DNA from: Minisyncoccota bacterium
GTDB taxonomy: Bacteria > Patescibacteriota > Minisyncoccia > UBA6257 > 02-FULL-45-10c
Length of the DNA: 64,000 bases
NCBI GenBank assembly: GCA_036517155.1
Contig: DATDXY010000009.1
Span: 2,141-66,140, forward strand
Reading direction: 5' to 3'
Every line of letters starts with the position of its first letter. Position 1 is the first letter of the stretch. The notes beneath the pieces were generated by a model. That model saw only the letters and a program-made list of their open reading frames with translations. It was not told the origin of the DNA and made no database searches. Shown here one piece after another: positions 20,020-35,136 of the stretch. A program made the translations under genes and the position numbers.

Positions 20020-20054
20020 ATAGGCTAATTATAGCACTTCTTACTGGAGTTCTA

Positions 20055-20077
20055 TATTTGTGCCCTCGAAGGGAATC
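20055..20077. repeat. 23-bp direct repeat = duplicated 3' end of tRNA-Arg (17 nt) plus 6 nt of flank
   Basis: tatttgtgccctcgaagggaatc identical at 20055..20077 and 20265..20287. Confidence 0.8.
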
Positions 20078-20231: not shown

Positions 20232-20262
20232 AATAAAAAATCACTCGGCAAGCGAATGATTT
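20232..20262. terminator. hairpin flanked by A-run and T-run (terminator-like) between tRNA-Arg and the structured element
   Basis: aaaaaATCACTCGgcaagCGAATGATttttt, 8-bp stem with one mismatch. Confidence 0.4.
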
Positions 20263-20270
20263 TTTATTTG

Positions 20271-20342
20271 TGCCCTCGAAGGGAATCGAACCCCTATCAA
20301 CCGGTTCGAAGCCGGTTACTTTATCCATTAAGCTACGAGGGC
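20271..20342 (-). tRNA. tRNA-Arg (anticodon UCG)
   Basis: GCCCTCGTAGCTTAATGGATAAAGTAACCGGCTTCGAACCGGTTGATAGGGGTTCGATTCCCTTCGAGGGCA; anticodon loop CTTCGAA. Confidence 0.85.
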
Positions 20343-28415: not shown

Positions 28416-29567
28416 ATGCGGAAATTGTTAATTATACTGGTTGCCCTCAGCGTTGTCGGATTATATATAACGATACGGTTTTTTAATGTACGGATTACGA
28501 CCCAGCAAAAAGATTTGGAATTTATTCAATTACCGGAAGGATTTCAAATTGAGGTCTTTGCCGACGATCTAGGCGGATCGCGCCTGTCTTCGCCCGGTCC
28601 GAATCCTGGACCGAGGTTAATGGAACTTCGCAATGATACGGTTTTCGTAGCGTTGCCAAGTAAGGGTGAAATCATAGCTTATGAAGATAAAAATAAAGAT
28701 GCTAAGCCGGATTCTCAAAAAGTTTTTTTAAGCGGTTTGCGCAAACCGCACAGCATTGCGTTTCAAGGGGACTGGGCTTATATCGCGGAAGAGGACCGGG
28801 TGATTCGCGTCAAAGATAAAGACAACGATAATATCGCGGAACCGGAAACAATTGAAAAAATTATTAGTTTGCCAGTTGCTGGCCATTGGACTCGCACCGC
28901 AAAAATAATTGATGGATCATTGTACATCGCTTTGGGTTCCAGTTGTAATGTTTGCCGGGAAACCGACCAAATACGCTCCACAATCCAAAAATGCGATTTA
29001 GATGGCAAACGATGCGAGACATTCTCGCGCGGCCTGCGGAACACAGTGGACTTTATTCAGTACCAAGGAAAAATATACGGAACTGATAACGGAAGAGATG
29101 GTTTGGGTAATACTTTACCGCCGGACGAAATTAATCTTATTGAAAAGGAAAAAAATTATGGATGGCCGATATGTTATGGCCAAAATATCCACGATACGGA
29201 ATTTGATACGAATACATACATAAGAAATCCATGCATGGCTCCGTTTGAAACGCCGGCATTGGTAGATTTGCCGGCACATGTTGCGCCGCTCGGACTAGCG
29301 TTTTATTCCGGTAGAGCTTTTCCGGAATTTTATCGGGGCAAATTGTTTGTTGCTATGCATGGATCTTGGGATGCGAATCCGCCAGTGGGATATAAAATAG
29401 CCACCATTGATACTGCTACGAAAGAAATTACGGATTTTGCCACGGGCTGGTTTAACGGAGAAACGGTGCTGGGCCGACCGGTTGGTATTATTAATTTTCG
29501 AGACGGCCTTTTAGTATCTGACGATAACGCCGGAAAAATCTACCGAATTTTTTACGAAGTGAAATAA
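28416..29567 (+). CDS. PQQ-dependent sugar (glucose/sorbosone) dehydrogenase-like beta-propeller protein
   Basis: N-terminal TM; EKNYGWP motif and overall propeller pattern. Confidence 0.6.
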   Translation: MRKLLIILVALSVVGLYITIRFFNVRITTQQKDLEFIQLPEGFQIEVFADDLGGSRLSSPGPNPGPRLMELRNDTVFVALPSKGEIIAYEDKNKDAKPDSQKVFLSGLRKPHSIAFQGDWAYIAEEDRVIRVKDKDNDNIAEPETIEKIISLPVAGHWTRTAKIIDGSLYIALGSSCNVCRETDQIRSTIQKCDLDGKRCETFSRGLRNTVDFIQYQGKIYGTDNGRDGLGNTLPPDEINLIEKEKNYGWPICYGQNIHDTEFDTNTYIRNPCMAPFETPALVDLPAHVAPLGLAFYSGRAFPEFYRGKLFVAMHGSWDANPPVGYKIATIDTATKEITDFATGWFNGETVLGRPVGIINFRDGLLVSDDNAGKIYRIFYEVK

Positions 29568-29579
29568 TTTTTAAGACTG

Positions 29580-29839
29580 CAAATAACTTTCTCCGAAACC
29601 CAATGAGCCGAAGCGGGCAGGGTGTCCTCTCCGCATATACCCTTCGGAACCGGCTGTCCGTTTCCTCCAGCGGGAAACGGCAGCGCTTAGTTCTCGCGTT
29701 GCCATCCGCCAAGTATGGCGGAACCAATCTGGCAACGCTCCGAAATATTCCTCAGAATATATGCGGATAGGACGAGCGAGGCGAAGATAAGCAAGCGAAC
29801 ACGCTGGGTGAGCGTAGCGGGTTGAGGGAAAGTTATTTG
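29580..29839 (+). ncRNA. candidate ~260-nt highly structured ncRNA, class unassigned
   Basis: 12-bp terminal helix caaataactttc/gaaagttatttg; 16-bp helix GGTGTCCTCTCCGCATATA/TATATGCGGATAGGACG enclosing two long hairpins (cruciform); additional GNRA/UUCG-capped hairpins; no ORF; followed by terminator. Strand uncertain. Confidence 0.35.
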
Positions 29840-29851
29840 CGGTTTTTAAAT

Positions 29852-29880
29852 AAAAAAAAGCACCCATGGGGTGCTTTTCA
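29852..29880. terminator. bidirectional terminator (A8 - AGCACCCCATGGGTGCT - T4)
   Basis: Palindromic hairpin; T-run is longer on the minus strand (8 nt). Confidence 0.65.
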
Positions 29881-30152
29881 GAGTGAGATATTGCAAAGAG
29901 CAAGTTGTTTTCTTTTAAAAAGTATTAAGTGGCAGCTTGGAGAAGCTACTTGAATCTATTGGTATTCTGTTCTCAACGAACTGATACCTTAATCATATAA
30001 TATGGAGCGGGAGGCGCAAGAGTAGTTATTCACACCCCAGCTAAAATAAGAATAAGTTTTCTATTATATAATAAGAATAAGCTGAAATCTGGCTACATTG
30101 ATAGTCAGCAGTAAAAGGTCGGCATCATTACGGAACACACCTTATATAATAT

Positions 30153-30836
30153 ATGATAGTTCAAAAGTGGACTGACGTACTCGTATTATCGCTTCAAGAC
30201 TTATATCGGCAGGTGCTTAACTTCTTGCCTTCATTGATCGGTGCGATCATCGTCTTTGTTGTCGGCTTAGTTATTGCGGCAGGACTTGGGGCAATCGTAG
30301 AACGGGTGGTAGGCGCCTTGAAAATTGATACGCTATTACGGCGTGTTGGTCTTGAGGAATATACCAAACGCGCGAACATTGAGTTAAATTTCGGTCATTT
30401 CTTAGGTCAGGTAGTATATTGGTTTATCGTGCTGGCGTTTTTACTAGCGGCAGCAGAAATTTTGAATTTCTATAACCTTTCCGGTTTTATTCAGGATTTC
30501 TTGTTCTACGTTCCCAACATTATCATTGCGGTTTTGATTATGATAGCTTCGTTCGTGATTGCGAACATTTTGAAGCATATCGTTCGAGCGTCAGTGATGG
30601 GCGCGCGGCTCCATTCGGCAAAATTCTTAGGAGCAGCAGTCTGGTGGATCGTAGTTATCTTTGGACTTTTAGCTTCGCTTGTCCAGCTTAGAATCGCAGT
30701 CTCAATCATTGAAACAGTGATTACTGGCTTGATTGCAATGCTGGCGTTGGCCGGCGGTTTGGCTTTCGGTCTCGGCGGCAAAGAATACGCTTCGGAAGTC
30801 ATCGGCAGAGTGAAGAACGAATTGGAAGGAAGATAA
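30153..30836 (+). CDS. membrane protein with two 'conserved TM helix' repeats (MscS-associated N-terminal-domain type)
   Basis: Two copies of the PF05552-like pattern (LIGAIIVFVVGLVIAAGLGAIVERVV / IIIAVLIMIASFVIANILKHIVRASV). Confidence 0.55.
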   Translation: MIVQKWTDVLVLSLQDLYRQVLNFLPSLIGAIIVFVVGLVIAAGLGAIVERVVGALKIDTLLRRVGLEEYTKRANIELNFGHFLGQVVYWFIVLAFLLAAAEILNFYNLSGFIQDFLFYVPNIIIAVLIMIASFVIANILKHIVRASVMGARLHSAKFLGAAVWWIVVIFGLLASLVQLRIAVSIIETVITGLIAMLALAGGLAFGLGGKEYASEVIGRVKNELEGR

Positions 30837-31430: not shown

Positions 31431-31558
31431 TTTGTTGCTAATAGCACCCATGAATGCCTGACTGAATTTTGAAAAATGAATATCGTTTAAGATTTAACGA
31501 GCTGAAAGTAAAAAAGATAAAGTAAAGAAATGAATACTGACACAAGGGGGTCAGTTAA

Positions 31559-31820
31559 AGTCTTGTACTTCACATATTTTACCAATCAAGCGAAACGAAT
31601 TTTTAGACAGATTCGCGACGCGATGAGCGAGTGTGCTGGATGCACTCGAGCGAAGAGCAACAAAGAAGATGGCAAAAATTCGTTCGCCCGAAAGGGAAAT
31701 AAATTTTGAACGATTTCTTCGTTGCTTCTCCTCGACGTACTTCCGTACGTCTTGTCGTCGCGCCTTGAACTCATTTCAAAATTTATTTCTTGATTTGGCG
31801 AGATATGTGAAGTACAAGAC
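31559..31820 (+). repeat. 18-bp perfect inverted repeat (gtcttgtacttcacatat ... atatgtgaagtacaagac) enclosing 226 nt, right arm abutting the mature 23S 5' end
   Basis: Arms at 31559..31576 and 31803..31820. Confidence 0.7.
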
Positions 31821-34910
<3,090 letters not shown>

Positions 34911-34989
34911 CGTTGGAATTATCCAACATTTACAAGAGAATATGACTGACTCTCTTGTGTAAGTATTCATTTCATTTTTTACTTTTAAT

Positions 34990-35136
34990 TGCCTCCAGTG
35001 ACTTCCTGGTGATTTAGCAGTAGGTGTCCCACCTCTTCCCATTCCGAACAGAGAAGTGAAATCCTACTGTCCTGATGATATTTCCTGCTTCGGCGGGTGA
35101 GAAAGTAGGGTTCGCCGGGATATCAGTGGAGGCAAT
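34990..35136 (+). rRNA. rrf: 5S ribosomal RNA (slightly expanded, ~147 nt)
   Basis: Helix I TGCCTCCAGTGA/TCAGTGGAGGCA; conserved CCCACCTCTTCCCATTCCGAACAGAGAAGTGAAA. Confidence 0.85.

Follow-up and report, generated by a model that had tools for sequence, protein, structure and literature searches.

Results

Position and fold of the element

We analysed a 64,000-nucleotide stretch of a Minisyncoccota bacterium genome (contig DATDXY010000009.1; hereafter the window, to which positions and strands refer) and describe here a structured element of about 270 bases at 29575–29845. The element lies behind a pyrroloquinoline quinone-dependent sugar dehydrogenase gene (GSDH; 28416–29567, plus strand; Pfam PF07995/PF23500), the product of which has an identical counterpart in a 'Candidatus Paceibacterota' metagenome-assembled genome (MAG). 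It starts 8 nt past the TAA stop codon of this gene and ends 10 nt before a hairpin at 29855–29879 (GCACCC-AUG-GGGUGC, flanked by runs of A and T), which the terminator scan and the sequence mark as a bidirectional intrinsic terminator; a first-pass annotation of this DNA had noted a palindromic terminator there. The scan scores the hairpin on the minus strand only (8 T), and the plus strand has TTTTC. Most simply, this is the dehydrogenase terminator, now parted from its stop codon by the element; without the element, the two would stand about 20 nt apart.

Positions 29575–29885 fold with a minimum free energy of −139.3 kcal/mol, compared with −97.0 ± 5.3 kcal/mol in dinucleotide shuffles (z = −7.95), and the opposite strand reaches −139.4 kcal/mol (z = −8.87). 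Both strands fold almost equally well because only 4 of the roughly 86 pairs are G·U. The G+C content of the element is 55%, compared with 43% for the window. Open reading frames (ORFs) do cross the region, contrary to the wording of the first-pass annotation, at 110 amino acids on the minus strand and 55 on the plus strand, and a 98-amino-acid minus-strand version has been called as a gene in some public assemblies; that annotation was nevertheless right that there is no coding support. None of these frames has a Pfam match, and the sole relative found is another copy of the element, and we rejected a protein-coding reading of all three. The element is thus real, non-coding, highly structured and unannotated.

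The fold is closed by a terminal helix, P1, the 5′ arm of which (GACUGCAAAUAACUUUC, 29575–29591) pairs with the 3′ arm GAAAGUUAUUUGCGGUU at 29828–29844 in the minimum free energy structure. It had been described as 12 bp; we count 13 Watson–Crick pairs (GCAAAUAACUUUC / GAAAGUUAUUUGC), lengthened by G·U pairs, of which the helix has 2, to 17 pairs. Inside it, 29592–29596 comprises a bulged U, CC (paired with GG at 29826–29827) and the 5′ GA of a tandem GA/GA 2×2 internal loop, followed by the 5′ strand of a second helix, P2 (AACCC, 29597–29601), which pairs with GGGUU at 29819–29823. Hairpin A (GCC-GAAGCG-GGC) occupies 29607–29618. Next comes the base of hairpin B, in which UGUCC (29623–29627) pairs with GGACG (29770–29774). 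Between these two strands, at 29628–29769, lies an expansion of 140 nt that consists of a perfect 10-bp helix (29630–29639/29758–29767) and a three-way junction (29644–29648/29739–29743) carrying hairpins at 29653–29684 (4 + 9 bp) and 29696–29738 (9 + 7 bp). These are the two long hairpins that had been noticed from the letters. The '16-bp helix' said to enclose them is also there, but it is split into 6 and 10 pairs (29623–29628/29769–29774 and 29630–29639/29758–29767) by one bulged base on each side.

On the 3′ side of hairpin B runs a purine-rich 22-nt strand, AGCGAGGCGAAGAUAAGCAAGC (29775–29796), without convincing local pairing, and then hairpin D (ACGCU-GGGUG-AGCGU, 29801–29815), one of the small 3′ hairpins of the earlier description. 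The CGCU of hairpin D may pair with other AGCG motifs, and RNAalifold without P1 prefers another partner for it, which leaves the fine structure of the 3′ third uncertain. Positions 29819–29827 hold the 3′ strand of P2, then the GA that forms the 3′ side of the tandem loop, and GG, after which the 3′ arm of P1 completes the element. An extended −10-like box, TGAAATAAT (29560–29568, plus strand), overlaps the stop codon of the dehydrogenase gene 7 nt before the first base of P1; it is a pattern match only, and the promoter scan, for which a −35 box is obligatory, did not call it.

Copies at other sites and in other genomes

In contigs of the window species, drawn from at least five samples, the element is identical and in one orientation, and strain look-ups with the dehydrogenase and mechanosensitive-channel proteins of the window returned identical copies only, with neither an empty site nor a flipped copy. 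A close relative (contig L005, 1.3 kb) encodes a dehydrogenase that is 80% identical, and the element lies 13 nt beyond its stop codon, here as the reverse complement: positions 1250–1294 correspond to the minus strand of window positions 29800–29840 with three differences, and the contig stops inside the element. Dehydrogenase homologues at 60–64% identity have no element and no spacer after the stop codon.

Two shorter copies stand in unrelated contexts. One of them (L006) is a 133-nt form between pnp and a gene of 374 amino acids, in the plus orientation of the window on the strand of both genes; we reached it through the spurious 98-amino-acid ORF, for which it was the single distant match among 1.8 billion representative proteins. 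No terminator follows this copy. Adjoining it, between the copy and the pnp stop codon, is a perfect 22-nt AT-only palindrome, TTAATTAAAATATTTTAATTAA (L006 5178–5199). The other (L020) is a 140-nt form inside the mnmA ORF of a Saccharibacteria MAG, on the sense strand. The family as assembled here is made up of three full sequences (window, L006 and L020) and one fragment (L005). Of the four copies, three have the sense orientation of the transcription unit around them, and the L005 copy is antisense to the dehydrogenase gene.

Searches at larger scale added little. Degenerate patterns built on two conserved blocks gave one confirmed locus, L020, in 185,579 species genomes. A 19-mer containing P1 had 0 matches in genome contigs, and a 19-mer from the conserved strand had 11 in JGI metagenome contigs, all by chance. 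Exact-pattern scans of IMG/VR viral contigs turned up nothing real, blastn against phages and plasmids gave nothing, and a chimeric six-frame peptide profile found nothing at E ≤ 10 in 5.8 billion proteins; the translated spurious ORFs form singleton clusters among 15 billion proteins. Nor is there any sign of a high-copy repeat within the 64-kb window or any fetched locus, none of which holds a second copy (one copy per related contig). We found no specific description of an RNA or element of this kind in the literature on the candidate phyla radiation (CPR). The family is very rare and sporadically distributed.

Several contigs end within the element. Contig L003 stops 97 nt into it, L030 starts inside it and L005 ends inside its own copy. 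Because the element interrupts short-read (Logan) assemblies in two organisms, and because a 98-amino-acid 'gene' has been called over it, we regard its palindromic structure as the source of both the contig breaks and the spurious proteins.

A conserved core and signs of a strand preference

What the copies have in common is a core of about 100 nt, in the order GA, P2, hairpin A, hairpin B, the 22-nt strand, hairpin D, P2′ and GA. Its 5′ half ends in GGUGUCC and its 3′ half begins with GGACGAGCGAGGCGA, with the apex of hairpin B between them. This apex measures 11–13 nt in L006 and L020, which lack the expansion, compared with the 140-nt three-way domain of the window, and no relative of that domain was found by way of its translated ORF. 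The window element is therefore the shared core, one hairpin of which has a large expansion specific to this copy. Neither the apex nor P1 can be aligned between copies; P1 is 11–20 bp long, nearly perfect and of its own sequence in each copy, and its arms are complementary in every one.

Core identity is 93% between the window and L006 and 78% between the window and L020. The GA/GA internal loop is invariant in all three, and the AGCGAGGCGAAGAUAAGCAAGC strand is identical at 22 of 22 positions in L006 and at 20 of 22 in L020. Set against the window, L020 differs at 12 of 28 positions in loops and junctions, at 6 of 38 in helices and at 2 of 22 in the conserved strand, a pattern that shows the core to be under constraint. 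The base of hairpin B (UGUCC/GGACG) is the same in every copy, and the stem of hairpin A is kept in all three, with a loop of GRAGCG in the window and L006 and of GAGCG in L020. P2 in L020 is AAACCU/GGGUUU with a U·G pair. In hairpin D, an A–U pair of the window is exchanged for U–A in L020; this outer pair is a U·C mismatch in L006 and L005, and the inner pair is U–A in the window and U·G in L020.

These comparisons also bear on the strand. In the structural alignment, all non-Watson–Crick pairs of P1, P2, B and D are G·U in the plus orientation, which makes them A·C on the other strand, although the limits of the helices came from plus-strand folds, a bias that leaves only about three wobble positions free of it. 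In the three full copies, the plus orientation exceeds the minus in stability by 2.9, 14.8 and 4.0 kcal/mol. On the plus strand the conserved 2×2 loop reads GA/GA, a common RNA motif; its minus-strand reading is UC/UC. Both the wobble pairs and the energies of folding are suggestive of a preference for the plus strand of the window. In base composition the copies stand apart from their surroundings, with a G+C content of 55–65% compared with 43–48% in their hosts.

An in-frame copy in mnmA and a proposed origin of P1

When the predicted L020 protein is aligned to solved structures of MnmA, the match is lost at 'GHYVRKE' and taken up again at 'RLLQAKD', with 42 residues in place of 7 at one loop. 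The element is read in the sole stop-free frame of the three, and the downstream frame is kept. Its core accounts for 33 residues, and the two arms of P1 (18–20 bp) encode about 9 residues compared with 6–7 in homologues; the arms therefore occupy the positions of the native β-hairpin strands.

Such arm lengths would fit arms derived from the host. The mobile unit may accordingly be no larger than the core, with P1 made largely from the host flanks, one of which might have been rewritten, for instance through hairpin-templated copying at the DNA level, as the reverse complement of the other. An origin of this kind would explain why P1 is specific to each copy, why mismatches are nearly absent from it and why both arms are coding. 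If such arms recombined, or if a template switch took place between them, the inversion between the window and L005 would be the expected product. A precedent for coding palindromes exists in the mitochondria of Nematomorpha (PMC6649704).

Comparison with known RNA families

A cmscan of the window with Rfam 15 at gathering score found 23S rRNA, 5S rRNA and ten tRNAs and nothing inside the element, in keeping with the first-pass view of an unassigned structured RNA. When the threshold was relaxed to E ≤ 10 for 29450–30200, seven weak matches appeared, all of them centred on the terminator or the downstream spacer, and none aligns with the helices of the element. Scans of the L006 and L020 copies gave nothing significant, and the best score inside any copy was for Betaproteobacteria-1 in L020 only (21.1 bits against a threshold of 49.4). 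On the basis of these scans (window, L006 and L020) and ARAGORN, we rejected 6S RNA, SRP RNA, tmRNA, riboswitches, ribozymes, group I and II introns, HEARO, raiA and ROOL.

A reduced or atypical RNase P RNA had been proposed from two short strings, GGAACCGGCU and GAGGGAAAGU, and this string resemblance is all that speaks for it. No RNase P model scores on the window copy or the short copies, even at E ≤ 10. The strings occur in permuted order, GAGGGAAAGU being a strand of P1/P2 and GGAACCGGCU lying in the expansion that the relatives lack, and the layout that defines RNase P RNA (the P4 pseudoknot of CR-I on the 5′ side and CR-V on the 3′ side, and a specificity domain) is missing. The relatives are only 133–140 nt long, and nearly all CPR genomes lack the family. 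We regard the chance that the element is an RNase P RNA as negligible.

The proposal of a small RNA (sRNA) derived from the 3′ untranslated region (3′UTR) of the dehydrogenase gene finds no support as a conserved role: the L005 copy is inverted, homologues at 60–64% identity do without the element, and the other copies are found at pnp and in mnmA. A cis-regulatory RNA (riboswitch or leader) was set aside, given that the neighbours differ in each genome and the orientation is flipped in L005.

Genomic neighbourhood

Apart from the element, the window reads as an ordinary CPR chromosome, with genes for a CCA-adding enzyme, peroxiredoxins, SOD, RecG, RpoB/RpoC, topoisomerase I and RelA/SpoT, and an unlinked 23S–5S operon. 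We found no transposase, integrase or reverse transcriptase in it. Beyond the relative at 80%, the best matches of the dehydrogenase have 55–64% identity and are mostly archaeal (Woesearchaeota, Methanoperedens and Nanoarchaeia), which suggests that the dehydrogenase gene itself was acquired horizontally. No minus-strand gene ends at the minus-scored terminator. Behind the terminator lies a 270-nt AT-rich gap (the two together span 29855–30152), followed by a gene resembling those of mechanosensitive channels. The gap holds a promoter-like site on the minus strand (30095–30068), and a short minus-strand transcript is conceivable.

The rRNA operon holds a structure of its own. At 31558–31822, between the 5′ strand of the 23S processing stem (31502–31563, which pairs with 34937–34998) and the 5′ end of the 23S rRNA (31816), there is an almost perfect rod-like hairpin of about 265 nt (outer arms of 28 nt, 89% complementary; −109 kcal/mol, z = −9.5), which has no sequence similarity to the element studied here. 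The 23S rRNA match spans 31816–34907, that is, 3,092 nt against a model of 2,925 nt, so that insertions amount to at least about 170 nt. The 5S rRNA (35004–35121) follows, and there is no 16S rRNA gene in the 64 kb; such unlinked rRNA operons are common in CPR bacteria.

Two further repeats were seen in the window. A 28-nt direct repeat (20050–20077 and 20260–20287; 93% identical, 210 nt apart), the second copy of which includes the 3′ end of a tRNA-Arg gene (20270–20342, minus strand), looks like the att-site remnant of an integration event. Tandem paralogous ORFs at 15652–16962 and 16959–18329 (436 and 456 amino acids, no Pfam match) share 252 nt at 94% identity as well as an exact 33-nt repeat.

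Discussion

The element behind the dehydrogenase gene is, on our tentative reading, a horizontally spread, non-autonomous structured insertion element resembling the Rickettsia palindromic elements (RPEs) and the intervening sequences (IVSs) of rRNA genes, and passive in the dehydrogenase 3′UTR; we hold this with somewhat less than even confidence. We favour it over a housekeeping RNA or a regulator of the dehydrogenase because the contexts change from copy to copy, one copy is flipped and another is in frame, the composition is foreign, core identity is high across two CPR lineages, and the family is extremely rare. The core, as the part that moves and is under selection, would have landed at unrelated sites in different genomes of the CPR/Patescibacteria type, each copy becoming clamped by a long, nearly perfect and copy-specific P1. 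The hairpin B apex of the window copy would also have grown the 140-nt domain of perfect hairpins. Lying between stop codon and terminator, the window element is probably transcribed passively as 3′UTR. Any effect would most likely be incidental, as a very stable block to 3′ exonucleases or a target of RNase III. Whereas the fold, the family, the differing contexts, the inverted and in-frame copies, the rarity and the contrast in composition are shown by the data, we infer the mobility, the derivation of P1 from the host, the single plus-sense strand as the active form and any effect on the mRNA.

Several observations weigh against this reading. [quoted passage not shown] The copies have no conserved terminal inverted repeats in common and no consistent target-site duplication, and the direct repeats that flank them (TTTTTAA in the window, AGCGAG in L006 and CAGG in L020) differ in length and spacing and could be due to chance. 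There is no transposase, integrase or homing endonuclease in the window, and no autonomous relative was found. Evidence from covariation is thin, with three full sequences and one fragment. Finally, a functional RNA would account just as well for the strand pattern of the G·U pairs, for the tandem GA loop and for the 22-nt strand with its invariant sequence.

A new class of structured non-coding RNA, one of the first-pass proposals, has to be considered, acting in the plus sense of the window either as a stand-alone sRNA of about 300 nt, transcribed from the TGAAATAAT promoter-like box at 29560–29568 and running from about 29575 to the terminator, or as a horizontally spreading cis module for mRNA processing or stability. 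The wobble pairs that are G·U in one orientation only, the greater stability of that orientation in the three full copies, the invariant GA/GA loop and the near-invariant 22-nt strand (20–22 of 22 positions) are what such an RNA should show, as is a hairpin B that accepts any apex, like the peripheral hairpins of functional RNAs; three of the four copies are sense to their transcription unit, and in the window a −10-like box stands 7 nt upstream of P1 with a terminator directly downstream. Yet the G·U count is biased by the helix limits drawn from the plus strand, with about three positions unbiased, and the occurrence of the element is sporadic and extremely rare, with no conserved gene neighbourhood. 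In L005 it is inverted relative to the same upstream gene, and the L006 copy has no terminator and the L020 copy lies inside an ORF, and therefore there is no common gene-like architecture. A mobile insertion element accounts better than an RNA gene for the patchy occurrence, the shifts of context and the in-frame copy, and we judge a new class of functional RNA unlikely. The copies might instead be intervening sequences at the RNA level, with P1 joining the flanks and the element being cut from the transcript by RNase III or by a cut-and-ligate route that restores the mnmA frame. P1 and P2 together offer 20–25 nearly continuous base pairs in every copy, duplexes of a kind that RNase III cuts, and the three sense copies lie within transcripts. 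The rRNA genes of CPR bacteria, which carry many short, ORF-less and unclassified insertions thought to be IVS-like and horizontally spread, offer a precedent (PMC11270868). Against this, a frame that is open and in phase in L020 would be needless if the element were spliced out (the chance is about 1 in 9) and is expected if it is translated; unless ligation followed, cleavage by RNase III would destroy the mnmA mRNA; none of the copies is scored by an intron model; and the element is found outside rRNA genes. We consider removal from the transcript distinctly unlikely.

Also distinctly unlikely, in our estimate, is a core that is itself a mobile or excisable element at the RNA level of a sort undescribed in bacteria: an RNA of about 100 nt that would insert in the sense direction into transcribed regions, recruit or create its long clamp helix from the flanks, leave the mRNA again by cleavage and religation or else work as a small ribozyme or protein-binding module, and be 'intron-like' for CPR protein-coding genes. 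An inverton, in which the inverted repeats of 13–17 bp would serve as recombination sites and flipping would alter transcription beside the dehydrogenase or mechanosensitive-channel genes, is suggested by the segment of about 240 bp that is bounded by perfect 13-bp inverted repeats and by the opposite orientations at the same locus in two related genomes, the window and L005. However, contigs of the same species from five or more samples show one orientation and identical sequence, the window has no invertase or recombinase gene, the element holds no promoter-like site, and the mnmA and pnp copies would be left unexplained; there is in our view only a very slight chance that it is one.

An insertion element of the kind that we favour has its closest parallels in the RPEs and other intragenic MITE-like palindromes, which likewise measure about 100–150 bp, are non-coding on their own, adopt a stable hairpin-like fold, and occur both between genes and inside conserved ones. 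RPEs are read in frame inside genes, where they add a peptide at a tolerated loop (PMC10969869), and the mnmA copy, a single case, is an in-frame insertion in a conserved gene at such a loop. In contrast to the element, with its one copy per contig, RPEs are present in multiple copies per genome that share their ends; the element has an outer repeat that is copy-specific and looks host-derived, an internal multi-helix core that is conserved and has strand-specific wobbles, and CPR hosts. Unlike MITEs, its copies share no terminal repeats, the arms of P1 being GCAAAUAACUUUC in the window, GUUAAUCUUUU in L006 and AAGAAGCCGGCACGGAUUUU in L020. The IVSs and other insertions in CPR rRNA genes are also short, ORF-less, sporadic and, by an unknown mechanism, apparently horizontally spread (PMC11270868), and their ends also form a long stem that would be a substrate of RNase III; none of the four copies of the element lies in an rRNA gene, their sites being a 3′UTR, an intergenic spacer and a protein-coding gene. 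The coding palindromes of Nematomorpha mitochondria resemble the arms in mnmA, as perfect inverted repeats within a gene of which both arms are translated at native positions (PMC6649704), but no conserved foreign core separates their arms, and they occur genome-wide in one organelle lineage.

Like the window element, repetitive extragenic palindromic (REP) sequences and bacterial interspersed mosaic elements stand directly after a stop codon and before a terminator, as a stable hairpin that could protect the upstream mRNA, as REP hairpins in Escherichia coli 3′UTRs can. REPs differ in being about 35 nt long, present in hundreds of copies and mobilized by REP-associated tyrosine transposases, none of which is seen for the element. 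Integron attC sites were rejected: the arms of the window match 5 of 7 positions per core site (RYYYAAC ... GTTRRRY) and those of L020 none, there is no integrase, and the conserved 100-nt core is foreign to attC sites. Retrons, IS200/IS605 ends and bridge or ωRNAs were set aside, with their partner enzyme genes absent from the window and their defining sites missing.

CPR/Patescibacteria genomes are tiny and streamlined, yet they have unusual insertions in rRNA and tRNA genes. A structured insertion in a 3′UTR, an operon spacer and mnmA would extend this picture to protein-coding transcripts, and would add a phenomenon like that of the Rickettsia RPEs to a second group of reduced, host-dependent bacteria. 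In practical terms, the element breaks short-read assemblies and yields spurious gene calls. Its copy-specific, perfect outer stems would provide a concrete case for how flanking DNA turns palindromic around an insertion. The element belongs to a very small family, which we place, with a confidence that again stops a little short of even, within the broader theme of palindromic or structured selfish insertions, here in CPR bacteria.

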